A DNA stretch of 64,000 bases from Patescibacteria group bacterium. Lineage in GTDB: Bacteria > Patescibacteriota > Microgenomatia > UBA1400 > PJMF01. This document shows, piece by piece, positions 7,435-62,628 of this stretch (its first letter is position 1; the number at the start of each line of letters is the position of its first letter). The stretch covers positions 991,298 through 1,055,297 of the forward strand of contig BOKR01000001.1 in the NCBI GenBank assembly GCA_016861085.1, given 5' to 3'. The translations under genes and the position numbers were made by a program. The notes under the pieces were generated by a model, which saw only the letters and a list, made by a program, of their open reading frames with translations, was not told the origin of the DNA and made no database searches.

Positions 7435-8037
7435 TTATAGGAATTTTTCAAATTTCCGTTCAGGAGGAAATTGTTCCCAGTGTGGGGCTACAAAAAAAAG
7501 AACTCTATAATCTTCAACTATTTCTTTTTTTCCAGAATATGGATCTTCCACTTCATTTGTGTCCCACCACCTGTGCATAAATACAGGAATCTCTACAATT
7601 CTATTTTGATCTGCAAAATCTTTATATGGATCAACAATTATTAAGGCATCTGCATCATCATCAACATTTACCACAACACTATAATGACCAAAATCAAGAT
7701 CCTCATCGCCAATGTCCTGAGATTCTTCTTCTTCAGAGCCATAGAAAAGTCCCTGCCACTCCACAGCAACCGCATACCCTCTGGAAAGCAAATAACGAAT
7801 GTCATCTAAACTCGCACTGTATTTGTACCAAAAATGAATATGCGGCGCCAGTTTAACAGAAGCCAGTGCAATTTGATCAATTCGCATGCCATACTCTTCA
7901 AGCTTATCTTCAGAAATTTGGGCAGCCTCTCTAACTTCATCTTGGTCAATTTCAACACCAACCGCTTCAAGCAACATCTCCAACACTGCTGGTCCACAAT
8001 GACTTTCCGAAATTTGCTGAACGCGACGAATATCCAT
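7435..8037 (-). CDS. Papain-fold C39-like cysteine peptidase domain protein (standalone)
   Basis: 200 aa. N-terminal Q..SESHCGPAVLEMLL matches the C39 Gln…Cys-Gly nucleophile motif. His and Asp candidates lie downstream. No ABC transporter domain is attached. Confidence 0.45.
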   Translation of the reverse strand: MDIRRVQQISESHCGPAVLEMLLEAVGVEIDQDEVREAAQISEDKLEEYGMRIDQIALASVKLAPHIHFWYKYSASLDDIRYLLSRGYAVAVEWQGLFYGSEEEESQDIGDEDLDFGHYSVVVNVDDDADALIIVDPYKDFADQNRIVEIPVFMHRWWDTNEVEDPYSGKKEIVEDYRVLFFVAPHWEQFPPERKFEKFL

Positions 8038-8051
8038 ATAATCTTATTGTA

Positions 8052-9101
8052 TTATAAATTCCCCTTTTGAATTTTTCTGGCATGTTTACTTATGAGACTC
8101 TTTAAAAAGTAAGTAAAATCAATCCCATGTAGAGCAAGCACCTCTGTCATAGGCAAACCCTTATCTGGTCCAAGCGCCGTGTTTGGATTGCAATCTATGA
8201 AATATGGGGTATTTGTTTCAAGATTATAGCGAATATCAAATTTGGCATAGTCTCTATACCCCAAAATATCAAAAGCTCTTATGGCTAATGGATTAATTTT
8301 ATCTTGAATGAACTGTTCCGGAATTTTGTAAGAATACGCTCTTGCATCCTCATAGCTTTCTAAACTCGTAAAGTCATATTTGCCGTCTGGTTTGATTCTG
8401 AATTTCTTTTCCCCTAAAAATACATGCTTCTTTCTACCATCATCAAAAACTACACAAGTAACCTCCGGACCATTCTCAAATTTTTCAACAATGACCGGAA
8501 TTTTATATGTCTCAATCATTTTTTTGACTTTTTTTTCTGCAGCTTCTAAAGTTTCTTTAACTGCCTTATTGTCAATGCCAACACTCCCACCACTTTCATT
8601 TAGTTTCACAATCAGTGGAAATCCTAAATCAGTTGGGACATTAGAACGTAAATCTCTAATCAGTTTGTAGTCTGGAGTAGGGATATCTAGAGAAATCAGG
8701 AGTTGTTTAAATAAATGCCTATCGTTACCAACTACCAGGCCCTTTAACCCAGCCCCAGTATATTGAATTGCTGATAATTCCAGCGCCCCAGGAATTGCCG
8801 GCTGAAGTGAGTCTTTACCCTTAACAGTGTCTGCTAGATTGACTACTAAGTCAGGTTGGTCCACCAAAATGTTAGTAAAAAAATATTGATCTGCGGCATA
8901 TCCCTTAACTGGTATCCCAAGTTTGGCAATTTCTGCGATTACCTCTTCGGCTCGCTCTTCAACTTCTACTTCGGCTTCATATGCACCTTGAGTTGCGTAG
9001 TCCTCTCTATTTACTTTTGAGTACGAGACGGCTACTAAACTGAGTGCTTTCAAAGCCTCGTCATCAATAAAAAAATTTGGGAGTGAAATAGATTGATTCA
9101 T
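8052..9101 (-). CDS. ddl: D-alanine--D-alanine ligase family ATP-grasp enzyme
   Basis: 349 aa with the Ddl-like motif series (…YTGAGLKGLVVGNDRHLFKQLL…, PLIVKLNESGGSVGI, FIDCNPNTALGP). Confidence 0.55.
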   Translation of the reverse strand: MNQSISLPNFFIDDEALKALSLVAVSYSKVNREDYATQGAYEAEVEVEERAEEVIAEIAKLGIPVKGYAADQYFFTNILVDQPDLVVNLADTVKGKDSLQPAIPGALELSAIQYTGAGLKGLVVGNDRHLFKQLLISLDIPTPDYKLIRDLRSNVPTDLGFPLIVKLNESGGSVGIDNKAVKETLEAAEKKVKKMIETYKIPVIVEKFENGPEVTCVVFDDGRKKHVFLGEKKFRIKPDGKYDFTSLESYEDARAYSYKIPEQFIQDKINPLAIRAFDILGYRDYAKFDIRYNLETNTPYFIDCNPNTALGPDKGLPMTEVLALHGIDFTYFLKSLISKHARKIQKGNL

Positions 9102-14829: not shown

Positions 14830-16530
14830 TTGGTACTCATGTTTTCATTAGCACGTTTTTCGATAACCAAATTACTGGCAAACAACACAAAGTGGCTGGA
14901 GACCCAGCAAACCAGTATCAACTCTGCAGCTGCCATCATTGCCATGGCGAATGCGTTTTCGATCCTGTTTGGATTTGTCCGAACCAGAATCGTATTGTCT
15001 TATTTCTCTGAAGAGGTGGTTACTGCCTGGACTCTAGCTTTCCAAATTCCAGATCTGTTGTTTCAGTTGTTAATTTTTGGAGCACTCTCAGCAGCTTTTA
15101 TTCCGATCTTTTTATCACTCAAAAAAACACACGATGATGCCACAGCTTTTAAAATGGGTGGAATAGTTTTAAATATTTTGCTGATAGCATTCACTTTAGC
15201 AAGTCTTCTAATTTTCATTTTTGCTGAACCCTTAACTTTGGCTCGTGTTGGCGACAAGCTTTCATTAGAACAACTGCAAATTGTCATTAAACTCACAAGG
15301 GTAATGCTCTTAGCTCAAATTTTCTTTACAGTCTCTAATGTTATGACCGGTGTTTTGCAATCATACAAACAATTTATTGTTCCAAGTCTCGCTCCAATTA
15401 TTTACAACCTTGGAATTATTCTTGGAGTCGTTTTGTTTTCAGGACAATTTGGCATTTACTCTGCAGGGTTGGGTGTAATTCTTGGAGCTTTCATGCATAT
15501 GGTAGTGCAAATTCCGCTCGGGTTTAAATTAGGTTTTAGGCCAACGTTTTCATTGAATATTAAACATCCAGGTGTATTAAAGCTATTTTTACTTTCTCCT
15601 GCCCGATTTTTAACTATCGGTATTTCTGAATTTCAGACCCTGGCTATAGCTTACTTTGCCACTTCTATCGGCCAGCTGAGCTTTTTATATATCTCATATG
15701 CCAACTTTTTATCGACATTCCCAATCAGAATGTTTGGGGTTCCACTCAGTCAGGCAGCGCTCCCATTTCTATCCCAATACTCAAAACAAGAAGAATTGGC
15801 AAAGTTCCGTGATCTTATGTTGCAGTCATTACATCAAATTTCATTTTTGGCTATGCCAACTTCGGTCTTGCTCCTCATTTTGAGAGTCCCAATTGTTCGT
15901 ATCGCTTTTGGTACTGATAACTTCAGTTGGACATCAACGGTTACAACTGGAAAAGTACTCGCAATCCTCGCACTCTCAATTACAGCTCAAGCCATGGTTC
16001 AATTACTTATTAGAGGTTTCCATGCATTAAAAAATACTAATACACCGCTCATTATTTCCGCCATTTTTACAACTTTCTATTTGTCTACCTCTTACTATAT
16101 AGTCAAATTTACTTCGTTTGGGGTTGTGGGACTTGCCGCTGCCAGCGCAGTGAGCTTTGTTCTAGAATTACTGCTCTTTGTCATTATGTTAAACAAAATT
16201 GTTCCAGAATTTATTAGCAAAAAAATGCTTGTCCCACAATTCAAAATGCTTTTATCTAGCTTCTTCATGGCTGTATTTCTATATTTGCCATTTAGAATTT
16301 TCGACGAACTCATCTTTGATACTACAAAAACAGTAGAACTAATTGGGCTAACAATAACTACCGGTACGATTGGTATGCTTGTGTATATTTACTTTGCAGC
16401 TCTTTTTGAAATAAAGGAGCTTGAGTTAATCACCAAAACGCTTGCCAGCTTCTCCAACAAATGGCGTTCAAGTGTGAGTAAGACAGAAGAATTCATGGTT
16501 GAAACCTCTGCTGATAATGAAGGTGTCTGA
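14830..16530 (+). CDS. murJ: Lipid II flippase MurJ (MviN family)
   Basis: 566 aa polytopic membrane protein with the MurJ N-terminal signature (…ILFGFVRTRIVLSYF…LAFQIPDLLFQLLIFGALSAAFIPIF). Confidence 0.8.
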   Translation: MVLMFSLARFSITKLLANNTKWLETQQTSINSAAAIIAMANAFSILFGFVRTRIVLSYFSEEVVTAWTLAFQIPDLLFQLLIFGALSAAFIPIFLSLKKTHDDATAFKMGGIVLNILLIAFTLASLLIFIFAEPLTLARVGDKLSLEQLQIVIKLTRVMLLAQIFFTVSNVMTGVLQSYKQFIVPSLAPIIYNLGIILGVVLFSGQFGIYSAGLGVILGAFMHMVVQIPLGFKLGFRPTFSLNIKHPGVLKLFLLSPARFLTIGISEFQTLAIAYFATSIGQLSFLYISYANFLSTFPIRMFGVPLSQAALPFLSQYSKQEELAKFRDLMLQSLHQISFLAMPTSVLLLILRVPIVRIAFGTDNFSWTSTVTTGKVLAILALSITAQAMVQLLIRGFHALKNTNTPLIISAIFTTFYLSTSYYIVKFTSFGVVGLAAASAVSFVLELLLFVIMLNKIVPEFISKKMLVPQFKMLLSSFFMAVFLYLPFRIFDELIFDTTKTVELIGLTITTGTIGMLVYIYFAALFEIKELELITKTLASFSNKWRSSVSKTEEFMVETSADNEGV

Positions 16531-16573
16531 TGTACTTGGTGTTCTCGCAATTTTTTAGTAGAATGAAATAGAA

Positions 16574-17188
16574 ATGAAAAAAGCTGCCCAGATAAACATC
16601 AATCTTCTCCCTAGGGACCCATTTTTTTCTACAATTTTTGGGCAAGTGTTGCGTTGGGCTTTGTCAGCAGGTAGATATGTTGTGATTTTCACCGAGTTAG
16701 TAGTGATTATGAGTTTCATCGCAAGATTCACACTAGATAGGCAAGTTACAGACCTCAATAGTGCAATTGAGAAAAAACGACAAATTATTCTTTCATATGG
16801 TGATCTAGAAGACAATTTCAGGTCAGTTCAAGAAAAGATTACCCAATACAAACAGACCGAGCAAGAAACGAATATAGTTGATACTTTTGAACACCTGGGC
16901 GCTGTAGTTCCAGAGGGAATTACTTTAACTGAGCTTGCAATCCGTCCTACTTCCGTCACCATTTCTGGAACTACGCTCTCTCAAACAGCTTTTAATTTAT
17001 TGATTAATAACTTACAGCTTTCTTCAGAATTCAAGAATATTACAGTTGGTGAAATTCAGTCAAATGAAAACGATGATGAAGGAATCAGTTTTAATATCAG
17101 AGCTGATACTAAAATTGTCCAAAAAGTAAAAGCAGGAGCAAATTCAGAAGAAAAAGTTGACTTATTAGATAGGACGCAAGGATTATAA
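16574..17188 (+). CDS. pilN: Type IV pilus assembly protein PilN-like
   Basis: N-terminal ININLLP motif, a single TM helix and a periplasmic domain, typical of PilN. Confidence 0.6.
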   Translation: MKKAAQININLLPRDPFFSTIFGQVLRWALSAGRYVVIFTELVVIMSFIARFTLDRQVTDLNSAIEKKRQIILSYGDLEDNFRSVQEKITQYKQTEQETNIVDTFEHLGAVVPEGITLTELAIRPTSVTISGTTLSQTAFNLLINNLQLSSEFKNITVGEIQSNENDDEGISFNIRADTKIVQKVKAGANSEEKVDLLDRTQGL

Positions 17189-17190
17189 TT

Positions 17191-17862
17191 ATGCAGGAAG
17201 CAAGTCCAAATCCAAATGTCTCTACTGCCAAAAAACGAAGAGAAATCGCTACCGTTTTAAATCAGTTTTACATGAATCCAGTCGCAAAAGCGTCAACTGA
17301 GTTATTTTTAACTGTTGGATTAGTACTTTTTCTCGGAGCGTTTGCTATTCGACCAACTATCTTAACGATGTCAAATCTGCTGAAAGAAATCGAAACAAAA
17401 AAAGAACTAGATGCCTCACTTACTAAGAAAATTGCAGCACTTCAGACTGCTCAAACACAATATGTGAGCATTGAAAATGAATTAGAAGTACTCAATGAGG
17501 CAATCCCCGAACAACCAGATATTATACTCGGAACAAAATTGATCGAAAAAATGGCTGCCGATAATAGAGTTGTGATAAATAGCTTGAGCATTTCTGATTT
17601 ACCTGAAGACAGTGAATCTACAGTACTATTCACACAAAAATCAAAGCAGTTACTGAATATCTCTATAAGAATCACCGGTGACTACGTTTCTATTAGAGAA
17701 TTCGTAGAAGCACTGAGAAATTCCCGAAAGAGCTTCGTAGTTGAATCTGTTGTTTTTGCATTAGAAGAAGATCGTGGTAATAAAAAATTAGGTGCAAATA
17801 TTACAGTTGGGACGCCATATTTTGGTGTGGCAGACCCTACTGAGCAAACGGCAAAAAAATGA
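17191..17862 (+). CDS. pilO: Type IV pilus assembly protein PilO-like
   Basis: 223 aa with one TM helix, a coiled-coil stretch and a C-terminal domain. Translationally coupled immediately after the pilN-like gene. Confidence 0.45.
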   Translation: MQEASPNPNVSTAKKRREIATVLNQFYMNPVAKASTELFLTVGLVLFLGAFAIRPTILTMSNLLKEIETKKELDASLTKKIAALQTAQTQYVSIENELEVLNEAIPEQPDIILGTKLIEKMAADNRVVINSLSISDLPEDSESTVLFTQKSKQLLNISIRITGDYVSIREFVEALRNSRKSFVVESVVFALEEDRGNKKLGANITVGTPYFGVADPTEQTAKK

Positions 17863-18302
17863 CAAAACAAGATACAGTCAAACAAGACATAAAAAAACTG
17901 CAGCAGAACAAACAGTTTCTAACAATAATGATTTTGTTATTTGTAATTTTACTGTTTTGGATCACAATTTCTTTAATAAGTTCTCAGACTACAGAAAAAA
18001 TATCACCTGAGCTACAAAAACTTTCAAAACCTTTAACTCCAGTTATCGACTCTGAGGTGTTAACAAGAATTTCCGAAAAAAGACAATACACTTCAGATGA
18101 ACTCTCGGCATTTACTATTTATAAAGTCTTAGTAAGTAGGGACGGAACCACTGAGCGTGTTGTACCAATTGAGGTAACTGCTGAAGATCTAGAGCCTACT
18201 GAGACACCTCCTTCTACGCCAAGTCCAGGCGGGTCTTTACTCCAGGGAGAGATCGAACCGACTCCTACATCAACCGATGAACCCACAGTTGTTGCCCCAT
18301 AA
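17859..18302 (+). CDS. Membrane-anchored Pro/Thr-rich protein (possible pilus-biogenesis accessory)
   Basis: 147 aa. One N-terminal TM helix and a PT-rich C-terminus (TETPPSTPSPGG…EPTPTSTDEPT). Start overlaps the pilO-like stop. Confidence 0.4.
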   Translation: MTKQDTVKQDIKKLQQNKQFLTIMILLFVILLFWITISLISSQTTEKISPELQKLSKPLTPVIDSEVLTRISEKRQYTSDELSAFTIYKVLVSRDGTTERVVPIEVTAEDLEPTETPPSTPSPGGSLLQGEIEPTPTSTDEPTVVAP

Positions 18303-18395: not shown

Positions 18396-19925
18396 ATGAA
18401 AAAGCCTGCGATACCAAAGAAATTACTCGATAAACGCATTCCCACATTACTCGGAATTTTTGTGCTTGTCGTCGCTTTGATTGCTGGAACGTTGTTACTA
18501 GGTGAAGGTCCAGGAGTTTTTGCCCCAAGAGCTACCCCAACAACAACTCCAAAAAAAATTAAAGTCACTAATGTCACTGATAACAGCTTTACTATCTCCT
18601 TTTTGACTGATGATCTAACGCCAGGATTTGTGAAATATGGCACTCAACCAGGGGCATTAAGTTCTCAAGCGAGTGACGATAGGGACCAGCTCAGTGGTAC
18701 AGTTTCCGACTACCGCGTACACCATGTGACTGTTCGAGGATTGCAACCAACTACAACCTACTACTATACCTTGGGAACTGGTGCAGGAACCAATTTTGAT
18801 GATAACGGTAATCCATTCATGATAAAAACAACTGCCCGAAGTGGTGCTCCTGCAGCAGCCAAAACTATTTATGGCAGTGTTAGTACCCAAGCTGGGAGTC
18901 CTGCTGACGGGTCTATCGTGTATGTTGCCTTAGCAAATGCCGGCGAGATGTCCTCATTAGTCAAAGCCTCGGGAAGTTGGGCAGTTCCACTTTCTAATGC
19001 TCGTACAAAAGATGGCAGTGGATACGCACAAATTACCGATGCAGACAGCATTATTTTAACAGTGCAAGGACAACTGCCAACCGATGTTATTACACATACC
19101 ACAATGGTTTCAGAAGCTCAGCCAGTCCCAACATTGACCTTTGGCCAAACAGCCCCACCAACCACAGTTCCTACCTCCCCAACTCCAACGCCAACCCCAG
19201 AAACTACGCCAGAACCAACTGTTGAGCCTACCTCTGAACCATCTACCCCAAGTGCTTCAATTGGTGATGAATTTGCAAGTACACCACTCTCAACCGAAAG
19301 TGCTGTAACAACCCAAGCCAGTGAAAGCGCTACAGCCATTACTGTAGTTGACCTTGAAAAAACTGAACCACAACAAGTAACAACAACTCAACCAGTTATT
19401 GTAGGAAAAGCAGCTCCAAATGTTACCGTTACTCTTGAAGTTCATTCAGACGGAAACATTCAGGAATTCGTTACCGCAGATGCAAATGGGAACTTTACAC
19501 TTGATATTGCTGCCCTCTCTAAAACTTTAGAACCTGGCCCACATACTGCAACCTATTCATATACTGATCCAACAACAGGGGAAGTAGTAACCAAAACAGT
19601 TGACTTCGTTGTAGCTGCACCTCAGCAGTTGGCACAAGCACAACCATTTGGCTCAGGCAATCCGTTCCCGCCACCAACTGCGACACCTACCCCAACTCCT
19701 GCAACCCAATCTGCCGTGGCTACACAGTCAGCAACCGCTACACAGTCAGCACAGGCTACAGAGAGCGGTAGAACAACAATGCCAGCTACAGACAGTGGTG
19801 TGCCTGTTTCAGGCTCTGTAGGAACCACACTTGCTTTAGTTTTTGGGGGCCTTTTCTTCATCATTTCCGGTTTGTGGAGTTTCTGGATTTCGCATCAGCT
19901 TGGAAAAAATGAGGTGGAGTTTTAA
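18396..19925 (+). CDS. Cell-surface protein with fibronectin-III-like (purple-acid-phosphatase-N-like) domain, PT-rich linkers and a C-terminal hydrophobic anchor
   Basis: N-terminal TM/signal segment. VTNVTDNSFTISFLTD…YYYTLG is FN3-like. TPTPTPE and ATQSA repeats. C-terminal …TTLALVFGGLFFIISGLWSFW hydrophobic segment. Confidence 0.55.
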   Translation: MKKPAIPKKLLDKRIPTLLGIFVLVVALIAGTLLLGEGPGVFAPRATPTTTPKKIKVTNVTDNSFTISFLTDDLTPGFVKYGTQPGALSSQASDDRDQLSGTVSDYRVHHVTVRGLQPTTTYYYTLGTGAGTNFDDNGNPFMIKTTARSGAPAAAKTIYGSVSTQAGSPADGSIVYVALANAGEMSSLVKASGSWAVPLSNARTKDGSGYAQITDADSIILTVQGQLPTDVITHTTMVSEAQPVPTLTFGQTAPPTTVPTSPTPTPTPETTPEPTVEPTSEPSTPSASIGDEFASTPLSTESAVTTQASESATAITVVDLEKTEPQQVTTTQPVIVGKAAPNVTVTLEVHSDGNIQEFVTADANGNFTLDIAALSKTLEPGPHTATYSYTDPTTGEVVTKTVDFVVAAPQQLAQAQPFGSGNPFPPPTATPTPTPATQSAVATQSATATQSAQATESGRTTMPATDSGVPVSGSVGTTLALVFGGLFFIISGLWSFWISHQLGKNEVEF

Positions 19926-36804: not shown

Positions 36805-37605
36805 ATGAAAAATAGCCACTATGATTGGAAAAACTTACTTATCGAGCTAACAAAGAAAGAGATATCTGTTAGATACAAAAAAACATTCTTTGGTTTTTTA
36901 TGGATGTTCTTAAACCCACTTTCTCAAATGCTAATTTTAGGGATTGTTTTTCAAAATTTTGCGAATCTCTCAATAAAAACTGAGAATTACTTTTTGTTTT
37001 TATTTATTGGACTTATCATTTGGAATTTTTTTTCAAATACTTTATATACTACAATTCCCATTTATGTTAATGAACGGGCTCTACTACAAAAAAGCAAATT
37101 TCCGAGAGAAATCATCCTTATTTCAGTACTATTTTCCAATCTATTTCATTACTTAGTTTCCCTTCTTGTTCTTCTTTGTTTTATTAGTATCTACTTCCTC
37201 TTCAGCAATGGTATGGGCGTTGTATTGAATTTGATTATTAGAACACCACTCATTCTCCTGACTACAATCTGGCTTGGACTACTTACAACCGGTATTGGTT
37301 TATTTCTCTCGTCACTGAATGTTAAATATAGAGATATTAATTTTTTTACTAGCGCAGCACTGCCACTCCTGTTTTATGCCTCCCCAATCATCTGGGAACT
37401 CCATTTTGTTCCGAAAGCTATTTTACCGATTCTGTACCTAAATCCACTCGCCTCTATCATTGAAATAAACAGGTATGTTTTTCTAAATGAAGGATTAGCT
37501 TTTTCAAAAGGAATTCTTTTAGGATTAATTGTTACCATCATTGTACTAGCGCTCGGAATTTATATTTTCGAAAAAGAAAGTCCTTACTTTGACGATTGGC
37601 TATAG
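36805..37605 (+). CDS. ABC-2 type polysaccharide/teichoic-acid export permease (Wzm/TagG-like)
   Basis: 266 aa, 6 TM helices, N-terminal …ISVRYKKTFFGFLWMFLNPL… ABC-2 signature. Confidence 0.75.
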   Translation: MKNSHYDWKNLLIELTKKEISVRYKKTFFGFLWMFLNPLSQMLILGIVFQNFANLSIKTENYFLFLFIGLIIWNFFSNTLYTTIPIYVNERALLQKSKFPREIILISVLFSNLFHYLVSLLVLLCFISIYFLFSNGMGVVLNLIIRTPLILLTTIWLGLLTTGIGLFLSSLNVKYRDINFFTSAALPLLFYASPIIWELHFVPKAILPILYLNPLASIIEINRYVFLNEGLAFSKGILLGLIVTIIVLALGIYIFEKESPYFDDWL

Positions 37606-38359
37606 AATGAAACCGAAACAAAAAAAACTACAAGAAATAGCGGTCAAACTAACGAAAGTGAGTAAAGTTTATACTGTAAAAACAGAAAAACCAACACTTG
37701 TTGAAACAGTACTAAACAAAAAGGGTATCACAAAATATACTGCTCTTAATTCTTTTGATTTAACTGTTCTTAAAGGTGAAAAACTTGGAATCATTGGTTC
37801 AAATGGTGCAGGAAAAACGACACTATTAAAAATTATTGTCGGAATTACACAGCCTCAAAGCGGAACTGTCACCGTAAATGGTAAAATTGTCTCATTGATT
37901 AATCTAATGGCAGGTTTTCACCCAGAGATGTCTGGTTTTGACAACATCAAGCTTAACGGACTGCTCATTGGTATGAGTGGAGCAGAAATCGAGGAAAAGA
38001 AAAATAAAATAGTAAAATTTGCAGATATTGGTGAGTTTATCTATGCGCCATTACATACCTACTCAACTGGAATGAAGTTGCGTCTTGGATTTTCTATAGC
38101 GGTTCACTCGGACCCAGATATTCTTATTCTCGATGAAGGGGTAAGTGCCGGTGATGAAAAATTCAGAGCGAAAGCGAACAATAAAATTCAAAAATTATTC
38201 AAACAAAATAAAACCATTATTGTCGTTTCACACTGGCTCAATTTTCTTAAAGAAAATTGTAATAGAATAATTTGGATGGAAAAAGGCAAAATAAAAAAAG
38301 ACGGCTCAACTAAGCTACTAGATGAATATCTGGCCTTTTATGCAGGAAAGAAAAAGTAA
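37589..38359 (+). CDS. ABC transporter ATP-binding protein (Wzt/TagH-like)
   Basis: Walker A GSNGAGKTTLLK, ABC signature YSTGMKLRL, Walker B ILILDEG. Start overlaps the permease stop. Confidence 0.8.
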   Translation: MTIGYRMKPKQKKLQEIAVKLTKVSKVYTVKTEKPTLVETVLNKKGITKYTALNSFDLTVLKGEKLGIIGSNGAGKTTLLKIIVGITQPQSGTVTVNGKIVSLINLMAGFHPEMSGFDNIKLNGLLIGMSGAEIEEKKNKIVKFADIGEFIYAPLHTYSTGMKLRLGFSIAVHSDPDILILDEGVSAGDEKFRAKANNKIQKLFKQNKTIIVVSHWLNFLKENCNRIIWMEKGKIKKDGSTKLLDEYLAFYAGKKK

Positions 38360-44863: not shown

Positions 44864-44884
44864 CCACAAAAAAAGCGCTTAATT

Positions 44885-45009
44885 CTGGCCTCGACCTATC
44901 TTCTCACTAGGGTTGCCCCTGCAATATTGTCAGCGCTGAGGCGTTTCAAGACTCTGTTCGGGAAGGGAAGAGTTGGGTCCACCTCGCTCCAGAGACCAGA
45001 ATTAAACGC
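44885..45009 (-). rRNA. rrf: 5S ribosomal RNA
   Basis: Minus-strand transcript GCGUUUAAUUCUGG…CCCGAACAGAGUCUUGAAACGCCUCAGCGCUGACAAUAUUGCAGGGGCAACC…CCAGAAUUAAGCGC. Helix I terminal pairing and loop-C/helix-IV consensus are present. Ends are approximate. Confidence 0.75.
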
Positions 45010-45189
45010 TTTAATCTGTATTATACTTCTCTCTTAACTTGTTAATGGGTGCAAAATCGTGTTTTCACGAGGTTTGCACACTGTTGTTGTTGCAAGCAGC
45101 CAAACGGTTTGCACAACAACGTAATTTGAACTCTAACAAGTGAAGAAAATCTGCCATGGGTCAAAAAGTCATTTGGTCGATTGGCCATA

Positions 45190-48115
<2,926 letters not shown>

Positions 48116-48587
48116 TAAATTTTAATTTAAAATTTTGCATGTTTGTATAATATTTTTCAATATGATACGGTTTGTAGCTTACTTATTATGTGCTTGAATT
48201 TGCATTCAAGCTCAAGTAATTATTTAATTCTTTAGTTAATCTCAAAATTGAAATTATAAAGATGTACGGCCAACTTAAATGATCAAATCATCTATTTGAC
48301 CTATACATGACAGTTTTCTTCACTTGTTAAAGTTCATCTTATAATTTTAAGTCTCAAAGCTTTCGGATTTATGCGTATAGAGCTTTTAAAAAACGTAGAG
48401 TTCAATATAATCTATACACCACCACTTATTTGACTTTAGCTTAGTTGCTAATTGTTAGTTCCTAGTTAATCCCGGGTGAGAGAAACCAAAGAACTAATAA
48501 CTAACAACCAATGTTATTTTAGTTTTCGCGCCAAAAAAAAAGAGTGATCAAATTATGAAAAGTAGTCTTATCCAGAGAAAAACTCTG

Positions 48588-48661
48588 TGGACCCTAAGGG
48601 GATCGAACCCTTCACCTCCTCATTGCAAATGAGGCGCTCTAGCCAGATGAGCTAAGGGCCC
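48588..48661 (-). tRNA. tRNA-Ala (anticodon UGC), CCA not encoded
   Basis: Cloverleaf read by hand: acceptor GGGCCCU/AGGGUCC with the G3:U70 alanine identity pair, D-arm AGCUCAUCUGGCUAGAGC, anticodon loop UUUGCAA, T-arm GGUUCGAUCCC. Confidence 0.85.
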
Positions 48662-48871: not shown

Positions 48872-49834
48872 ATGATAAATGAAGATTTTGAGATAACTAT
48901 ACTTAGTTCTGAAGAATTGGGACAAGAGGCTGAACAAAAAGAACTAACTCTAGATGAGTTGCTAGCTCTTCCACATCCCTTTGAACAAAATCCCGAATTA
49001 CTTGATTTAGTCGAAAACTATTTCCCTGGAAAAAATTACAGAGAACAACTTCTTGCTGCAACCCAACCTGGTATAAGTGATAATCCAGATGAACTTGAGA
49101 AATGGGAAGCTGAAGTAATCTTAAGAAGGAAACAAAAACTTCCAAATGACTTTGCTATTGCCCACCTGATACGAATTCTGTATGAAGAAACTTTCAGTGT
49201 ACGGCAATTTCAAGGAAAGCAGTCCGGATCTGAGGGGATGACATTAGGAGGTCTTTTGAGCCATCACTACTTTCGCCATAAAGTAGATGGAGTCGATTTG
49301 AATACAGTCTTGGATCTTGAAATAACCGAAAATACTTTTAAGGATGAATTTGAAAGATTAGTTAAAGATAATGATTTCAAATCACTAGAAAAATTGGTAA
49401 TACTGGTAACAGAGACTGCATTTACAGAACGATACTTTACCCAAGGACACGCCCACAGAATGAGAACCAACTTATTAAGAAGAAGAATGTATATCCACTC
49501 AGAAATGGCAGAAAATATGGGCTTTAGAGCCATAAAAGTTATCCATAGCAATCCTACACTACTACAAAAAGTAACAGACAAAAAACTTCTTGAGATTCCA
49601 AGAGTAGATTTTGAAACTAATTTACTCTATTTACTTCATAGACTTTGGGGAATCCTGGGAAACAGCCCTGGTGTGTTTTTTAGCGAGGGTGGGTATTACA
49701 AATATGAAGCTACAGAGGAATTACTTACTGGTCTTGAGCGACTTATTCTATTTCGAATCAATACTCAAACCCAAATATTATATAAATACCTCTCACCTTC
49801 AGGATACATAAACAATCAAAAAAAAACAGACTAA
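48872..49834 (+). CDS. Hypothetical protein
   Basis: 320 aa ORF, no motif recognised. Confidence 0.45.
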   Translation: MINEDFEITILSSEELGQEAEQKELTLDELLALPHPFEQNPELLDLVENYFPGKNYREQLLAATQPGISDNPDELEKWEAEVILRRKQKLPNDFAIAHLIRILYEETFSVRQFQGKQSGSEGMTLGGLLSHHYFRHKVDGVDLNTVLDLEITENTFKDEFERLVKDNDFKSLEKLVILVTETAFTERYFTQGHAHRMRTNLLRRRMYIHSEMAENMGFRAIKVIHSNPTLLQKVTDKKLLEIPRVDFETNLLYLLHRLWGILGNSPGVFFSEGGYYKYEATEELLTGLERLILFRINTQTQILYKYLSPSGYINNQKKTD

Positions 49835-55114: not shown

Positions 55115-56230
55115 TTATTTGTATCCAAGCGGAACTTCGGTTAAAACGAGACTCAGACTCATACGTCTTTGTTCAGGATCAACACTTTCAACGTTAACAG
55201 TGATGTGGTCGCCTTTTTTAAGGTTGTGACCTTCTTCAAGTTTACTTGAATGAATTAAACCATCAATACCTGTCTCAACGTTGACAAATACACCAAATGG
55301 CTCAACTCTAGAAACAACACCTTCAACTGTTGTGCCAACTTGATATTTATCTGCAATAACTTTCCATGGATCATCACTGAGCTGTTTAATAGAAAGGTTG
55401 AGTTTACCGGTTTTCTCATCAATACCAAGCACTCTTACTTTTAATCTATCACCAACTGCGTGGAACTCTTTTGGATGAGTCACTTTTTCCCATGAAATTT
55501 CTGAAATGTGAACTAAACCTTCAACGTGTCCAACTGAGTTTGAACCTTCGACAGGAACTTCTACAGTCACGAACAAACCAAAGTGCATCACGCCAGAGAC
55601 AACACCTTCATAGATTGCGCCAGTTTTGACACTATCAAGTGCTTCTTGTTTATTAGCAAGTTCTTCTGCCTCAGAAACGTGTCTTTCAGAAAAAATAAGT
55701 CTGTTTTTGTCTTTATCAACTTCAATGACACGAACTTTAATTGTTTCGCCTTTGAGTTTTGAAAACGTACCTACTAAATCTTTACCAAATTGGCTTGAAG
55801 GCACAAAACCTCTGGTTCCGTTGACAGAAACGATTAACCCACCTTTGTTGACTTCTAAGCCTTTGGCTTCAAGAATTGTCTCTTTTTCGTATGCCTCAAT
55901 AAAGTAATCCCATCTTGAGTCTGTTGCAGCTTTTCGTAGTGAAAGCATCACTTGTCCTTGATCATTTTCTGTTGAAACAACAACAGCTTCAATCTTGTCA
56001 CCAACCTTGAGGTCGGTCACATAATCACTAGCAGATTCAAATTCTTTATCAGCAACAATACCTTCAGTTTTAGCACCAATATCGATAGTTAAGGACTTTT
56101 TACTAATTGCGGTAATCGTACCAACAACTGTTTCTCCTTTCCTAGGAATAACCATTTTACTTGTAGCAGAAGCTAAAAGCTCAGCCATGGTTTGTGGCTT
56201 TTTTGTTTTTGTATCTGTGTCAGATGCCAT
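55115..56230 (-). CDS. rpsA: 30S ribosomal protein S1 (short, four S1 domains)
   Basis: Four S1 OB-fold repeats. Start MASDTDTK… is preceded by a strong AAAGGGGAAAT Shine-Dalgarno; the track start at 56275 lies 15 codons upstream. Confidence 0.85.
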   Translation of the reverse strand: MASDTDTKTKKPQTMAELLASATSKMVIPRKGETVVGTITAISKKSLTIDIGAKTEGIVADKEFESASDYVTDLKVGDKIEAVVVSTENDQGQVMLSLRKAATDSRWDYFIEAYEKETILEAKGLEVNKGGLIVSVNGTRGFVPSSQFGKDLVGTFSKLKGETIKVRVIEVDKDKNRLIFSERHVSEAEELANKQEALDSVKTGAIYEGVVSGVMHFGLFVTVEVPVEGSNSVGHVEGLVHISEISWEKVTHPKEFHAVGDRLKVRVLGIDEKTGKLNLSIKQLSDDPWKVIADKYQVGTTVEGVVSRVEPFGVFVNVETGIDGLIHSSKLEEGHNLKKGDHITVNVESVDPEQRRMSLSLVLTEVPLGYK

Positions 56231-56438
56231 AAACGTTATTTCCCCTTTCATGAGAGTGAGGCACAATTGTACCATAATTTCAAAAAAACTCGAGAGTAAA
56301 AATACGAATCAAAGGTTGCTAGGATCAAAGTATCCACGGGATCTTTTGTACCTGCAAAAATTTTTTGACAAAAATTGCTGGGTCAAAAATATGACGAAGT
56401 ATGATACTTTTGATTCTGTAGATAGAGAAAGTACAAAC

Positions 56439-57710
56439 ATGAAACTAAAACTTCCCCAAATCTCAGATATTAAGAACAAAACAGTCCTAGTACGTGTTGA
56501 CTTTAATGTCCCGCTTAAAAAAGATGATTCTGGAGTTCTAAAAGTTACAAATGATGAAAGAATCACAGCATCTCTTGAAACAATCAACTTTTTGCTCAAA
56601 CACGATGCGAAAGTAGTTTTAGCTTCACATTTAGGTAGACCAGAATCAGCAAGAGATGTGAAATATAGTCTGAGACCGGTAGCAGAATATATGAAAAGTG
56701 TGCTGGGATTACCAGTTGTTTTTTCCAATGAGTGTATTGGGAAGAATGCTCAAAAAGAAGTATTTCTTGCTAAAAAAGGCGAGATAGTACTCTTGGAAAA
56801 CATTCGTTTTCATAGTGGTGAACAAGAAAATGATGCGCAATTTGCAAAAGAGTTATCAAAGCTAGCTGATGTCTATATTAATGAGGCTTTTTCCACTTCA
56901 CATCGTGCTCATGCTTCTATTGTGGGAATCCCAAAGCACCTCCCTTCATTTGCTGGATTTGCACTTGAAAAAGAAGTGTCAACGTTTACTAAAATGACTG
57001 AGAAACCTGAAAGACCCCTCGTAATAATTTTGGGAGGTGCAAAAATCTCTGACAAGGTTGGAGCAATTGAACATTTGGCAAAAATTGCAGACATTGTGTT
57101 AGTTGGTGGCGCTGTTGCCAATAGTTTCCTAAAAGCCGAAGGTTTGGAGATTTATAAATCCTTTATTGAAGATGCACCTGCGGACTTAAAGAAAAAAAAT
57201 ATCAACTATACTGATGTTGCTTGCTCACTACTTGAAGAACATAAAACTGAAAAAATGCTCATGAATGGCTATATTCCACTACCAAAAATTGTCTACCCAA
57301 TTGATGTCGTTGCAGGACACTCACTTGAAGAAGCTGATCCTAAAAAAACTGAGGTCATTGATCTTACCAAAGAAAACGGACATCACGATAAAAACCTGTT
57401 ATACCTTGATATTGGTCCCAATACCGTCAAACTCTATCAAGAAATTATTTTGCATGCAAAAACGGTTTTTTGGAATGGTCCTATGGGAGTTTGGGAAAAT
57501 CCAGTTCTGGCCAACGGCAGTAAGAAAATTGCGGCTAGTGTGGCTCTGAGTAACGGTACTACTATAATAGGTGGTGGTGACACAATTGCTTGTGCTACCC
57601 ATTTTGGCCTGGACAAACAGTTTAGCTATGTTTCTGCTGCGGGAGGCGCTGCCCTTGATTTTTTAAGTGGCAAAAAGCTACCTGGGCTGGTTCCTTTAGA
57701 AGATAAATAA
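56439..57710 (+). CDS. pgk: Phosphoglycerate kinase
   Basis: …KNKTVLVRVDFNVPL…VVLASHLGRP… and the C-terminal …GGGDT… motifs. Start placed at MKLKLPQISD…, 15 aa before the conserved block; the track ORF start at 56187 overlaps divergent rpsA and is unlikely. Confidence 0.88.
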   Translation: MKLKLPQISDIKNKTVLVRVDFNVPLKKDDSGVLKVTNDERITASLETINFLLKHDAKVVLASHLGRPESARDVKYSLRPVAEYMKSVLGLPVVFSNECIGKNAQKEVFLAKKGEIVLLENIRFHSGEQENDAQFAKELSKLADVYINEAFSTSHRAHASIVGIPKHLPSFAGFALEKEVSTFTKMTEKPERPLVIILGGAKISDKVGAIEHLAKIADIVLVGGAVANSFLKAEGLEIYKSFIEDAPADLKKKNINYTDVACSLLEEHKTEKMLMNGYIPLPKIVYPIDVVAGHSLEEADPKKTEVIDLTKENGHHDKNLLYLDIGPNTVKLYQEIILHAKTVFWNGPMGVWENPVLANGSKKIAASVALSNGTTIIGGGDTIACATHFGLDKQFSYVSAAGGAALDFLSGKKLPGLVPLEDK

Positions 57711-57735: not shown

Positions 57736-58359
57736 ATGAAGCGGAGCATTAGACATTGTGAAACACTTACTTGCCACCAAAGTGACTTATTTTCCCCGAA
57801 AAGAACACCAGATCTTTCTCCGTACATTCCAGATAAAATCACTTTCGGTAATTCTGGATTTAGTGTTGGTTGGAATACTGTAGCAGAATTCCCTTTTCAC
57901 AAACTATGGAATTTAGACTTTACCCCAGAGCATAATCGTGACGGTAATATCGATGAAGAGAGAGCTGATCTATATAGAAACCTATTTTATTTTAACCTTG
58001 GACAGCTATTTGATTTTATACATACACTCAAACAAAAACATCGAACTATAGAAAAGCAATTTCCAGGAATACATTTTTTGGCGATTGCTGGAACAAATTA
58101 CCGATTTATGCGATTTCTTTGTAATCTCACAGGAAAATCAGAAAACAGTACAGTAATTTCACATTTTCGAATGGAAAGTAATCCAAAAATTAATTTTAGT
58201 AGTGACCAGCTAAAAAAAATGGCAGCAAAGTATTACTTTTTGATTAATTTGACTGAACTACAAAAATCAAATGCAGTAAAAAAGAAAATAAAAGCATCAA
58301 AACGAATCATAAAACAAGCTATAGCCAAGGGTGAGCAAATGTGCGAGGACTATTCATAG
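57736..58359 (+). CDS. Hypothetical protein
   Basis: 207 aa ORF directly downstream of pgk. Confidence 0.4.
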   Translation: MKRSIRHCETLTCHQSDLFSPKRTPDLSPYIPDKITFGNSGFSVGWNTVAEFPFHKLWNLDFTPEHNRDGNIDEERADLYRNLFYFNLGQLFDFIHTLKQKHRTIEKQFPGIHFLAIAGTNYRFMRFLCNLTGKSENSTVISHFRMESNPKINFSSDQLKKMAAKYYFLINLTELQKSNAVKKKIKASKRIIKQAIAKGEQMCEDYS

Positions 58360-58493: not shown

Positions 58494-61313
58494 ATGATTA
58501 ATACGACAAATAACTCACAAACATCTACAAATACTGATTCATCAGCAAAAAACAATCCAGAAATTGTGAAGCTTTCTGAGTATATGCAAGACAAACCAGC
58601 TACAACTACAACGACTACAACTACAACCACACTGAGCTCAGATTCCGTAAAACCAAAAAAGAAACTAAGCCCTAAATTAATTATTGGGGCTGTGGTGCTT
58701 TTACTGATTATTATTGGTGCGGCTGCTGGTTACTATCTAACCCAGTACTCTCAAGATATTAGACAACAGGCATATGACCCATCAATTTGTGCTCCATTTG
58801 CGCCATTTGCTACTTGTGACTTAACTCCCTCAACTCCAGATAATCCTTGTACTGGCCAAATTGAAAACGTTAGCTGTATTCAAGGCTACACACAATGGCG
58901 TTGTGGCAACAAAAACTGGATTCCAAACTACGAAAATCCAAATGCTAACTGTGGTGGCTGTCCATGGGAGCTCACTAATGGCGAGTGTTGTCCTAAAGGC
59001 GTAGATGCTTGTAATCCAGATGTAGACGAGCACATGTGTGTTGCTGATCCATTTGTTTCAAAATGCGAGCCATGGAATAACTCAGCCTGCCCAGCAAACC
59101 AGCAAGGATATTGGCATGCAATTGCTTGGTGCAATACTCCAGGCTGTGAGTGTGGTCCAAATGGTTTATTTTCAGATTATACTGGTCCGGGATGTGAGTG
59201 TGGCGGTGGCGGTCAACAATGTAATGATCAGTGTGACACTAATGCAGAATGTCAGGCTACCAACCCTGCATGGTCTTGTGTAATGGCAAGTGATGGCTTC
59301 AAACGATGCCGTTTGACCTCTAACCCAACCTCACCAACCTGTGGTGGCGGTGGTGGTGGACTCAATTGTAATGATTCTTGTACAGTAGGAGGTACTCAAT
59401 GTCAGGCAGTTAACCCAGCTTGGTTCTGTGATCCTGCAAGTAGCAAGTGTAGATTGCAATCAAATCCTTCTAATACTTCTTGCCAGCCAGGAACTACCTA
59501 CCAATGTAATAGTGACTGTACAACAACTGCACAGTGTCAAGGTTCTTTAGGAAGCGCATACTCATGTGTCAGTAACAAATGTAGGCTAACCGCCAACCCA
59601 ACTTCATCTACCTGTCAACCTGCTACTCCATTGGTTTGTAACGACATCTGTACATCAAGTAGTCAATGTCCAACTGGGACACAATGTTTAGATACCTATA
59701 ACTTCAGTGCTGAATTCACTGATGTCTCTAATACTACTGCTAATGTTGGATCAGGTACTGTTACTGGTTTTGATTCATTCGTTAGAAACGGTATTGTTGA
59801 ACAATACTTTGTCCGTGGTGGTCAAATCTGGTATAGACCCAATGCCTCTGGCTCTGACCCATGGCAAAATGTTACCGCTAACGTTACCAACGTTGGATCA
59901 GGTACTATCACCTCATTTAGTGCCTTCGTAAATACCTCTGGTGCTGTTGAACAATGGTTAGTCAGAGGTGGTAAAATCTGGTACAGACCAAATATCAACT
60001 CCGGTACTCAATTCACTGATGTCACTGGCAATGTTACTAATGTCGGCTCTGGTACTATCATGGCCTACACTGTAGACAAGTATTCTCCAAACCATGGTAA
60101 TATTGTCTCTGCGTACTTAATCAGAGGTGGTAAAGTCTGGCATCATTCCAGTTCTAATTGGAGCTTATGGCAAGATGTCACCAGTGCTCTCAATAAAGGT
60201 ACCGGTGAAATCACTTCTCATGCCTTCTTCGTTCACACCAGTGGCTCTATCAGACACCACTATATCCGTGGTGGTGCAACCTGGTTCAGAGAAGCACCTC
60301 TCGCCGCTGAAGACAGATGTAGATTGCCTGCGTATCCAAATTCTGGTAGCTGCCAACCTCCAACTCCTACACCAACAAACACGCCTACCCCAACTCCTAC
60401 ACCGACACCGACGCCAACGTCGACCCCTACACCAACCCCAACTCCTACACCGACGCCAACGCCAACAGTGTACGTATGTAACTCAGTCTGTAATCCAAAC
60501 TTAATGCAGGATCCATGTAACGCAGCAAACCCATTATGGACTTGTGACGATGCAACAAGTAGATGTAGGTTGACTTCTAATCCGACTTCTACAACTTGTG
60601 ACGCCGCTGCTTTGACCTGTAATTCAGCTTGTAACCCAAGTGATAGTGGTACGGCAAAAGACCTTTGTACTGCAGCAAATGATAAATGGTACTGCTATCC
60701 AACAACGAGCACTTGTAGATTTAAAGAAAATCCAACCTCTACAACTTGTGCACCACCTGTTGGAGCAGTTGACTGTAATGAGGCGTGTACTTCGAACGCA
60801 CAATGTACTGCAACAAATGCAAATTACACCTGTGACACAACTTCAAACACCTGTAGATTGGCCTCTAACCCAACTTCTACAAGCTGTGAACCAATACCTC
60901 CAGCTTGTAACGAAGCTTGTGCTACAAATGCACAATGTAAGAGGACAAATGCAAATTATGTTTGTGATGAAACAACAGATACTTGTAGACTTGAGACAAA
61001 CCCAAGCTCCACAACTTGCCAACCACCTGCCAGTACCCCAACTCCTACACCAGCTGTTGGTTGTAATGAAGTCTGTGTGACCAATGCTGACTGTTCTAAT
61101 ACAAGTCATATCTGTGCAACAACAGAAGATGGTTCACTTAAATGTAGACTGTCAGGTAACCCAAGTTCGACTACGTGTACTTTACCAGGTGGAACCACAC
61201 AACCAACCCTTCCTCCAGCTCTGCCACAAACTGGACCTGAGGATTGGCTTAACTGGTTGAAAGCAGGTTTGATTACCCTAGGACTTGGTGCAACACTATT
61301 CTTCCTGCTTTAG
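58494..61313 (+). CDS. Large Cys-rich repeat surface protein with N-terminal TM anchor, poly-Thr tract, ~45-aa beta-propeller-like tandem repeats, (TP)n linker and C-terminal LPQTG sortase-type sorting signal
   Basis: 939 aa. ≥12 copies of the module C..C…NP.W.C…S.CRL.SNP(T/S)S..C. Four to five copies of …NVTNVGSGTI…VEQW.VRGGKIWYRPN…. TPTPTPTPT linker. C-terminus LPQTGPEDWLNWLKAGLITLGLGATLFFLL. Confidence 0.7.
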   Translation: MINTTNNSQTSTNTDSSAKNNPEIVKLSEYMQDKPATTTTTTTTTTLSSDSVKPKKKLSPKLIIGAVVLLLIIIGAAAGYYLTQYSQDIRQQAYDPSICAPFAPFATCDLTPSTPDNPCTGQIENVSCIQGYTQWRCGNKNWIPNYENPNANCGGCPWELTNGECCPKGVDACNPDVDEHMCVADPFVSKCEPWNNSACPANQQGYWHAIAWCNTPGCECGPNGLFSDYTGPGCECGGGGQQCNDQCDTNAECQATNPAWSCVMASDGFKRCRLTSNPTSPTCGGGGGGLNCNDSCTVGGTQCQAVNPAWFCDPASSKCRLQSNPSNTSCQPGTTYQCNSDCTTTAQCQGSLGSAYSCVSNKCRLTANPTSSTCQPATPLVCNDICTSSSQCPTGTQCLDTYNFSAEFTDVSNTTANVGSGTVTGFDSFVRNGIVEQYFVRGGQIWYRPNASGSDPWQNVTANVTNVGSGTITSFSAFVNTSGAVEQWLVRGGKIWYRPNINSGTQFTDVTGNVTNVGSGTIMAYTVDKYSPNHGNIVSAYLIRGGKVWHHSSSNWSLWQDVTSALNKGTGEITSHAFFVHTSGSIRHHYIRGGATWFREAPLAAEDRCRLPAYPNSGSCQPPTPTPTNTPTPTPTPTPTPTSTPTPTPTPTPTPTPTVYVCNSVCNPNLMQDPCNAANPLWTCDDATSRCRLTSNPTSTTCDAAALTCNSACNPSDSGTAKDLCTAANDKWYCYPTTSTCRFKENPTSTTCAPPVGAVDCNEACTSNAQCTATNANYTCDTTSNTCRLASNPTSTSCEPIPPACNEACATNAQCKRTNANYVCDETTDTCRLETNPSSTTCQPPASTPTPTPAVGCNEVCVTNADCSNTSHICATTEDGSLKCRLSGNPSSTTCTLPGGTTQPTLPPALPQTGPEDWLNWLKAGLITLGLGATLFFLL
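60358..60470 (+). repeat. Imperfect (ACN-CCN)n repeat encoding a Thr-Pro linker
   Basis: ccaactcctacaccaacaaacacgcctaccccaactcctacaccgacaccgacgccaacg… read directly. Confidence 0.6.
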
Positions 61314-61343
61314 TGAGAAGATCATTGAAAAGGATTATAAAAA

Positions 61344-61373
61344 AGCGCTCGGAAAACCGGGCGCTTTTAATTT
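61344..61373 (+). terminator. Rho-independent terminator of the surface-protein gene
   Basis: agcgctcgg-aaaa-ccgggcgct hairpin followed by tttaattt. Confidence 0.6.
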
Positions 61374-61635: not shown

Positions 61636-62628
61636 CTATGGCTCTAATTTGAATAGTTTAGAAAATTCTTCCCAACTCATTCCCCCAGAGCGAACCATAT
61701 AGGGACGTATATCAGGAAATACTTTTGTTTGTAAAACATTATTTAATAGTAGTATTCGTGTTACTTCATGCATATTTTGTTCTAAAGCAGTTAGCGCATG
61801 AGCATCTGTTTTAAAACTATTTATGACTGTCTCAACGTCAAACTGATTATCTCCTGGTTGCAACCGACTTTCTGGCCTTTGATGCGGATAATCACTTTCA
61901 TGGGCAGTTTTGTGCCTAATATTTTGTCGAACAGTCCAAATAATTTTCATATATTGGTCAATCTTTTCTTCGTCACCAATAATCTCCAACAATCTTCCTT
62001 TAGTCCATTCTTGTGCACTAAGTGGATTATGCAGAATCCCAGTTCTATTACACTTTGAACAATCATGAATTCCTTCGCAAAACGGTTGGCGACCCACTAT
62101 TGCCTCGACTATTGAAAAATCAATGACCATTCTCCAGTACGAATAATCAGCCATCTCAGAATGTGACCACTGTTGCCCAGGTTTTAAATCTAGGAGTAGG
62201 TTTTTCACCATGCCGCTCTGTTGTTCGCTTAGCAATATGAATCTGCTGTACAACTGCTCATAACTCATTTTCTCTCTGATGCCTTCAGTTCGATATACGG
62301 TATTTAAAATGTCACTATAATCTCTTTCAGAACCGAATGGTTTTCCCATATACTCTACAATGCCATCAATAGTGCCCATATAGGATGGTAGTGTCCAAGG
62401 GTCGCCAATAATAAAAGCGTGAAAAAGTACCCACAAAGATAACTGGCCTTGAGGTAAATTTTCATACTCCAGGCTTACAGTTGGCCAAAGAGACTGGCCG
62501 CTTGAATTGGTTGTTTTTGTATTTATTATTGCGCCATTGCCCGCTGATACCTTAATGTTACCAACGGTTACGACTTTCTTAGGGGGATGCCATGTTATAA
62601 AAGAATTAGCTCCAAGTATATTTTCCAT
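61636..62628 (-). CDS. Hypothetical protein
   Basis: 330 aa ORF convergent with the surface-protein gene; no motif recognised. Confidence 0.4.
   Translation of the reverse strand: MENILGANSFITWHPPKKVVTVGNIKVSAGNGAIINTKTTNSSGQSLWPTVSLEYENLPQGQLSLWVLFHAFIIGDPWTLPSYMGTIDGIVEYMGKPFGSERDYSDILNTVYRTEGIREKMSYEQLYSRFILLSEQQSGMVKNLLLDLKPGQQWSHSEMADYSYWRMVIDFSIVEAIVGRQPFCEGIHDCSKCNRTGILHNPLSAQEWTKGRLLEIIGDEEKIDQYMKIIWTVRQNIRHKTAHESDYPHQRPESRLQPGDNQFDVETVINSFKTDAHALTALEQNMHEVTRILLLNNVLQTKVFPDIRPYMVRSGGMSWEEFSKLFKLEP

Follow-up and report, generated by a model that had tools for sequence, protein, structure and literature searches.

The open reading frame (ORF) at 58494..61313 on the forward strand of a stretch of DNA from a Patescibacteria group bacterium (64,000 nucleotides of contig BOKR01000001.1, hereafter the window) is a gene, not a chance ORF, and encodes a modular, cysteine-rich protein of the cell surface in a Patescibacterium of the Microgenomates group. 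It is best filed as a surface protein built from three unclassified elements: a six-cysteine (6-Cys) module, a sequence-novel propeller nested in one of these modules, and an extended LPxTG-type signal at the C-terminus. The intact frame, complete by the ORF list and by its homologues, encodes 939 residues plus a stop codon, with an extreme composition of 132 Thr, 84 Ser, 82 Pro, 79 Asn and 72 Cys. In total, 19 homologues of the protein and 31 related genome loci were found; the exact protein had no entry in public assemblies. About 35 N-terminal residues (including MINxx and PE[IT]VKLSEYM) are kept in the homologues, which supports Met1 as the start. A first-pass annotation of the DNA had described a modular, Cys-rich and extracytoplasmic protein of a small-genome Patescibacterium with an N-terminal transmembrane (TM) segment and about 70 cysteines, a description borne out by the present analysis.

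The gene can be divided into the following parts, all on the forward strand. The N-terminal low-complexity tail (residues 1-57; 58494..58664) is predicted to be cytoplasmic by the positive-inside rule, from the KPKKK cluster directly ahead of the hydrophobic segment at residues 62-83. The tail contains a tract of ten threonines (residues 37-46; 58602-58631), which had been counted as nine. The hydrophobic segment is a TM helix of signal-anchor type, followed by the conserved juxtamembrane motif YLTQxSQDIRQQA (together 58665..58778); residues G65, G79, Q84, R90 and Q91 of this region are invariant in 15 family members. The ectodomain of ~820 residues comprises an 18-Cys domain, nine 6-Cys modules, an inserted propeller and a Thr-Pro (TP) linker. 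The 18-Cys domain, termed type A, covers residues 96-240 (58779..59213), and modules 1-3 follow at residues 243-283, 292-330 and 338-374 (59220..59615), separated by Gly-rich or short linkers. The host module, the fourth, then begins with its N-terminal half, Cys1-Cys4 (residues 382-398; 59637..59687), is interrupted by the propeller (residues 399-608; 59688..60317), and ends with its C-terminal half, Cys5-Cys6 (CRLPAYPNSGSC, residues 609-620; 60318..60353). The (TP)n linker, present as reported earlier, occupies residues 621-660 (60354..60473) and leads to modules 5-9 (residues 662-702, 709-752, 761-798, 805-842 and 857-895; 60477..61178), among which lies a short TP linker at residues 843-856. 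The C-terminal sorting signal QPTLPPALPQTGPEDWLNWLKAGLITLGLGATLFFLL (residues 902-939; 61197..61310) includes LPQTG at residues 910-914 (61221-61235). Phase variation through the T10 and TP tracts was considered and rejected, as the DNA repeats are imperfect with 72-78% matches.

All nine modules end with the motif CR(L/F)xxxPxxxxC, eight of them being contiguous and one split by the propeller; at least 12 had been claimed before. Each module has 37-44 residues with the spacing C-x3-C-x5-C-x8/9-C-x4/6-C-x10-C, which is kept in 77 distinct copies from 20 proteins. The 18 cysteines outside the modules form the separate N-terminal domain, which is conserved in the homologues P0001, P0002, P0005, P0006, P0007, P0010 and P0013 and has no match in Pfam or the PDB. 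The second of two AlphaFold2 models, covering residues 93-378 with this domain and three modules, is of moderate confidence (pLDDT 67.5). Modules 1-3 reach pLDDT values of 70-84 in this model, where a short helix lies between Cys2 and Cys3 of every module and a β-hairpin comes after it; a Foldseek search with the model gave no match below E 1. Pfam comparison showed that the modules of homologue P0014 match the knottin family PF02977 above the cut-off (34.7 bits, in four partial stretches), and the best score among the modules of the 939-residue protein is 11.6 bits (E 0.25) against a cut-off of 25. In our view, the module is an unclassified 6-Cys domain whose first half resembles a knottin. 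Since an MdbA-like oxidoreductase and VKOR are enriched in bacteria of the candidate phyla radiation (CPR) (PMC6744442), oxidation of the 72 cysteines outside the cytoplasm is plausible.

The repeat core consists of exactly four repeats of 50-52 residues, whose pairwise alignment scores lie z = 5-24 above shuffles; the first reading had given four to five repeats of ~45 residues. Structure prediction of this core by AlphaFold2, from an eight-sequence alignment of residues 382-620 and homologues, gave a β-propeller with a mean pLDDT of 93.4, a pTM of 0.89 and no segment under pLDDT 50, rather than disordered low-complexity sequence. Each repeat contributes three long strands, one short strand and a helical turn of 3-4 residues. 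Structural similarity search using Foldseek revealed that all top matches of the model are four-bladed hemopexin (HX) domains. At the sequence level, no significant Pfam family was found for the propeller, even at E <= 10 on the isolated domain; the hemopexin family PF00045 gave no match at E <= 1 with the whole protein or at E <= 10 with the isolated propeller. A profile search of the PDB yielded no chain better than E = 1 and no HX chain at E <= 10. Exhaustive HMMER search of the propeller profile against 1.84 billion representatives returned only 88 proteins at E <= 1e-3, and word-indexed homologue searches yielded little (one protein for the propeller alignment and six for the anchor alignment, mostly short fragments). 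As modelled, the fold is a four-bladed hemopexin-like propeller, and the family is new at the sequence level.

Seventy-one propeller relatives were scanned for other domains. No Pfam family matches more than 4 of the 71, and PF00045 does not appear in the list of their 25 most frequent families. The fused domains include M12B metallopeptidases, glycoside hydrolases, M23 and dockerin; in distant relatives, the propeller is joined to secreted metallopeptidases and glycoside hydrolases in the manner of an accessory binding module. M12B reprolysin-like domains were assigned by Pfam in 4 of the 71 relatives, with P0021 confirmed, and an HExxH motif occurs in five distant relatives (P0021, P0036, P0039, P0049 and P0052). 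The combination of M12B and propeller in bacteria repeats the metzincin-plus-hemopexin architecture of animal matrix metalloproteinases.

The propeller sits between Cys4 and Cys5 of a 6-Cys module in all nine propeller-bearing members of the family, and the same Cys4-Cys5 nesting occurs in ~26 of 83 other representatives by a looser regular-expression test. The cysteines on either side of the propeller in the 939-residue protein, Cys398 and Cys609, lie on strands of the host module that pair with each other. The strand of Cys4 (model residues 16-18) adjoins and pairs with that of Cys5 (226-230) in the AlphaFold2 model, and in the second model the same two strands make the hairpin of ordinary modules. 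The propeller thus interrupts a module at its hairpin loop, and this host module would keep the two ends of the ring together. A further proposal, in which the propeller lies at the apex of a symmetric hairpin with 289 residues on each side, was discarded, since the homologues P0003 and P0004 are asymmetric.

The 38 C-terminal residues recur in conserved form in 37 ORFs from ~30 species, with the consensus QPxLPxxLPxTGPxDWxNWLKAGLxTLGxGxxLxLLL-COOH. The pentapeptide L-P-x-[TS]-G is invariant in 37 of 37 copies, as are W921, K923, G925, G930 and L935. In the present protein, LPQTG is followed by PEDWLNWLKAGLITLGLGATLFFLL and the stop codon, and the chain ends in ...LGATLFFLL. The passengers of the signal include DUF11 (20 ORFs), bMG10 (7), DUF7927 (4) and fn3 (2), and further ORFs carry Cys modules with or without the propeller. 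DUF11 (PF01345) is absent from the 939-residue protein itself; in the anchor-sharing proteins, it typically belongs to the neighbour gene of the array. Because the passengers differ, the 38-residue element behaves as a sorting signal. Sortase processing is its most likely mechanism, at about an even chance, as the motif is the exact sortase pentapeptide and sortase is reported to be near-ubiquitous in Microgenomates (PMC6744442) and encoded in a complete Microgenomates genome (PMC7143001). The first-pass annotation was right that an LPQTG motif and a hydrophobic C-terminus are present; its view that they are typical of sortase substrates did not hold, given the lack of a basic tail and of any match to a curated model.

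Elsewhere in the window, directly after the MurJ, PilN and PilO genes (14830-18299), a 509-residue fn3/PAP_N surface protein is encoded at 18396-19925 (+). It ends with GVPVSG, a hydrophobic stretch and KNEVEF, a more classical signal, and its homologue in a related locus (L030, 495-2093) ends with SLPKSG, a TM segment and an acidic tail.

Taken as a whole, the explanation we favour, with a little more confidence than doubt, runs as follows. The signal-anchor would insert the protein with its N-terminus inside, and MdbA/VKOR-type machinery of the kind reported for CPR bacteria would oxidise the 72 cysteines, turning the modules into a rigid and protease-resistant stalk. The host module would clamp both ends of the propeller, much like the circularising disulfide of animal hemopexin domains, and the propeller would serve as a ligand-binding head. 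An unlinked housekeeping sortase would then cleave LPQT|G and attach the protein to peptidoglycan. Its likely role would be that of an adhesin or capture protein for a host-cell or substrate surface ligand, either glycan or peptide. Uses of the HX fold in other proteins are well established. They include binding, for example in vitronectin (PMC6739113). Together with the appendage role in relatives and the display on a stalk-like row of small disulfide domains and a TP linker, they point to the propeller as a putative binding head, and the protein is a reasonable candidate for a binding protein directed at a host or substrate.

Several observations weigh against this sortase-anchored adhesin. 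A basic tail is found in none of the 37 signal copies, the sole lysine of which precedes the hydrophobic segment, and no anchor model (PF00746 or TIGR01167) matched at E <= 1 in Pfam or NCBIfam. Unlike classical sortase substrates, the signal is conserved for ~25 residues past LPxTG (GPxDWxNWLKAGLxTLGxGxxLxLLL). Sortase was sought by motif (a TLxTC-type pattern and a relaxed one), by phmmer with an approximate S. aureus SrtA sequence, a lead only, and by Pfam, in 64 kb of this genome and the locus surroundings in 33 relatives. None was found: none among the 40 ORFs of the window scanned in Pfam, and none by motif and phmmer among 861 ORFs from the window and 33 related loci. Moreover, the N-terminal TM helix may be uncleaved, as Q at -3 of RQQA makes a poor signal-peptidase site, in which case the protein would be tethered at both ends. 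The conservation of the locus beside housekeeping genes fits a core envelope component equally well as an adhesin; the adhesin role is a prediction. It is possible, if on balance doubtful, that the C-terminal element is not a sortase substrate at all, being instead either a permanent tail-anchor, which would fix both termini of the protein in the membrane, or the tag of a lineage-specific sorting or extraction system. The atypical features of the signal and the negative sortase searches in 34 sequence contexts are as expected for such an element, and the extended conservation resembles that of exosortase- and rhombosortase-type systems, which use dedicated motif-plus-TM signals. One candidate for the dedicated system, a MacB-type MFP-ABC-FtsX operon made up of a YknX-like adaptor, an ABC ATPase and an FtsX-family permease, follows the surface-protein array in relatives. 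It lies ~0.3-3 kb downstream in 27 loci (e.g. L002, 16648-19641), and a functional link between this operon and the anchor signal is conceivable. However, the synteny may just mirror conserved gene order, S1 and PGK being equally syntenic, and the genome studied here retains the signal although no MacB-type operon lies anywhere in the 64-kb window. The invariant pentapeptide and the reported prevalence of sortase in Microgenomates likewise speak for sortase processing, which we retain.

Another explanation, which we regard as unlikely, is that the protein is a structural component of the envelope or surface layer rather than an adhesin, with the modules and the propeller building or cross-linking a coat, possibly via intermolecular disulfides. 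Such a role would suit the fixed position of the array beside housekeeping genes in more than 20 species, the very high Cys content, and the DUF11 repeats carried by the partner gene of the array; DUF11 also occurs in the cysteine-rich chlamydial envelope protein OmcB, which we take as a lead only. The even Cys count and the strictly conserved 6-Cys modules favour disulfides within modules instead, the gene content of the array differs widely between species, and the propeller is accessory to hydrolases elsewhere, which suggests ligand binding rather than a lattice. Far less probable is the picture of the first-pass annotation, a classical LPXTG adhesin anchored by sortase, with a lectin/tectonin-like propeller or another lectin propeller of several blades. 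The propeller fold itself is confirmed by the model, the fucose-lectin propellers AAL and RSL are among its weaker Foldseek matches, and Tachylectin-2 is the second-best PDB sequence match to the propeller profile, at a non-significant E of 1.4. Tectonin propellers have six blades built from repeats of ~33-37 residues. The four repeats of 50-52 residues, the four blades and the lack of any tectonin or lectin Pfam match at E <= 10 contradict a tectonin or six-bladed lectin propeller; in addition, the top structural matches are all hemopexin domains and the sorting signal is atypical.

Relatives were collected by scanning the C-terminal 86 residues against one genome per GTDB species, which gave the 31 loci, and all those with informative titles are Patescibacteria (Pacebacteria/Paceibacterota, Woesebacteria, Microgenomates or "Patescibacteria group"). 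The titles "uncultured Pseudomonadales", "Limisphaerales" and "Methylococcaceae" given to L003, L004, L006, L010, L021, L026 and others are probably label errors in metagenome-assembled genomes. Wherever the upstream flank is long enough to judge, in more than 20 species, the genes follow one order: an S1-domain gene (-), PGK (+) and then 1-3 surface-protein genes. The window has S1 at 55115-56272, PGK at 56187-57707 and a single surface gene. Orphan ORFs at 57736-58356 (+, 207 residues) and 61636-62625 (-, 330 residues) flank this gene, with no Pfam match and no tblastn match in the related loci, which suggests that the locus was rearranged or hit by insertions on both sides. The longest PGK ORF (507 residues, +) has an N-terminal extension of ~90 residues that runs into the beginning of the divergent S1 gene; as PGK homologues at related loci have 422-430 residues, the true start is probably downstream. 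Downstream of the surface gene, a terminator-like hairpin at 61341-61368 (+) has a 12-bp stem with 7 GC pairs, a consensus match only.

The closest relative, L004, is 81% identical in PGK and 88% in S1, and its array has three genes. The product of the first (g1) has the N-terminal Cys domain seen in our protein, then modules, a propeller and, in place of the anchor, a C-terminal domain of Ig-like type; the second (g2) encodes DUF11 repeats and the anchor; and that of the third (g3) starts with another kind of N-terminal domain and continues with a propeller, a TP linker, five modules and the anchor. Compared segment by segment, modules 1-3 of our protein share 90% identity with g1 and 31% with g3, and the propeller 49% with g1 and 69% with g3. 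The TP linker shares 84% identity with g3 and 57% with g1 (only 7 of 40 residues aligned), and the anchor, absent from g1, shares 82% with g3. The protein is thus g1-like through residue 381 and g3-like from residue 382 on. From these identities we infer that recombination between paralogous host-module/propeller cassettes made it a chimera (residues 1-381 from g1, residues 382-939 from g3) and collapsed a three-gene array into a single gene. Between species, the gene content varies from one to three genes, with domains shuffled, present or absent. Such variation at a fixed locus would fit selection on a surface exposed to hosts or phages, and it leaves room for a structural role in the envelope.

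The window is low in G+C and holds several other features. A large cell-envelope glycan cluster at 19982-44863 encodes NAD-dependent epimerases/dehydratases, glycosyltransferases of GT2 and GT4, WecG/TagA, a sugar transferase and methyltransferases, with an ABC-2 exporter pair at 36805-38356; it is speculation that this cluster could glycosylate Thr/Ser/Pro-rich surface proteins. The 5S rRNA, 23S rRNA and tRNA-Ala(TGC) genes lie together at 44883-48661 (-), with 16S not adjacent; the rRNA operon is split, as a forward-strand ORF (48872-49834) stands where 16S would adjoin. At 7435-8034 (-), a stand-alone peptidase C39-like protein of 199 residues, with no bacteriocin ABC transporter domain attached, is encoded next to a D-Ala-D-Ala-ligase-like gene (8052-9098).

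Knowledge of host recognition and attachment in Patescibacteria is confined to the cultivated Saccharibacteria, and most surface proteins of Patescibacteria are unannotated. Our search of the accessible literature found no prior account linking hemopexin-like domains, the anchor motif or such Cys-rich proteins to Patescibacteria. In one Microgenomates lineage, the array after S1 and PGK is conserved and easy to locate, the putative binding head is confidently folded and could be expressed and screened for ligands, and the signature of the anchoring signal can be used to list the surface proteome. To our knowledge, the four-bladed propeller fold is otherwise known almost only from hemopexin-type domains, to which a bacterial family is now added; the protein is also an example of a tiny disulfide module that houses a large domain. 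A bolder proposal, which we offer tentatively and would not bet on, joins two claims: that the 38-residue element defines a Patescibacteria-specific sorting system, and that the propeller founds a prokaryotic four-bladed lineage. The sorting system may have a dedicated processing enzyme, either a sortase of a specialised class or a machine other than sortase, perhaps involving the MacB-type ABC operon. The propeller lineage may be independent of, or anciently related to, hemopexin, obligatorily clamped in the knottin-like module, and may provide the host-recognition head of ultra-small episymbionts. Altogether, these elements, with the adhesin role and the anchoring chemistry as predictions, offer concrete, testable ways into the surface biology of a lineage that has not been cultivated.

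In overall design, the protein resembles the MSCRAMM-type and serine-rich-repeat-type adhesins of Gram-positive bacteria, which likewise carry a binding head on a stalk of small repeated domains, with a low-complexity linker, and are anchored at the C-terminus. They share no homologous domain, however; the stalk here is disulfide-based, whereas theirs is Ig-like, and the long N-terminal tail with its TM helix resembles a signal-anchor rather than a cleaved signal peptide. Similar to the LPXTG sorting signals (TIGR01167/PF00746), the 38-residue element has a C-terminal L-P-x-T-G ahead of a hydrophobic segment at the very end of the chain, and is found on many different surface proteins, here in a monoderm-like lineage that generally encodes sortase. 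It differs in lacking the basic tail, in the ~25 extra conserved residues and a conserved upstream QPxLP, in escaping the curated HMMs, and in having no adjacent sortase. The 6-Cys module and the potato carboxypeptidase inhibitor knottin (PF02977) both have six cysteines in ~40 residues, the same first three gaps (C-x3-C-x5-C) and a CNxxC...DC pattern. Even in P0014, however, only profile positions 2-24 of 46, the N-terminal half, are matched; PF02977 has no counterpart to the second half CRLxxNPxSxxC, and the module is predicted to form a helix plus hairpin with no significant Foldseek match.

The closest known system is the HX domain (PF00045) of hemopexin, vitronectin, the C-terminal domains of matrix metalloproteinases, plant CP4 and PA2-type albumins, with MMP-2 and MMP-9 named in the comparison with the propeller model. 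An HX blade is defined as bridge-b1-b2-b3-rim-helix, with a "DAA" motif in b1 lining an ion channel and a circularising disulfide (PMC6739113). Compared to HX, sequence identity is ~10%; in place of the b1 consensus VDAAF, every blade here has (G)SGT(I/V)T(S/G)F in its first long strand, which contains small residues and no Asp. As GSGTITSF replaces "DAA", the channel aspartates are absent. The ring of HX is closed by a single disulfide between blades 1 and 4, whereas that of the propeller would be closed by insertion into a 6-Cys module, and all sequence relatives of the propeller with a nameable source organism are Patescibacteria. Despite these differences, both have four tandem repeats (~45-50 residues) that close one four-bladed ring, and blades whose three long strands lead into a short helical turn, so that the HX blade topology fits. 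Cysteines may hold the N- and C-termini of the ring together in the propeller, as they do in HX. Both also appear as appendages, ligand-binding in HX and putatively so in the propeller, and distant relatives of the propeller are fused to metzincin-type metallopeptidases.

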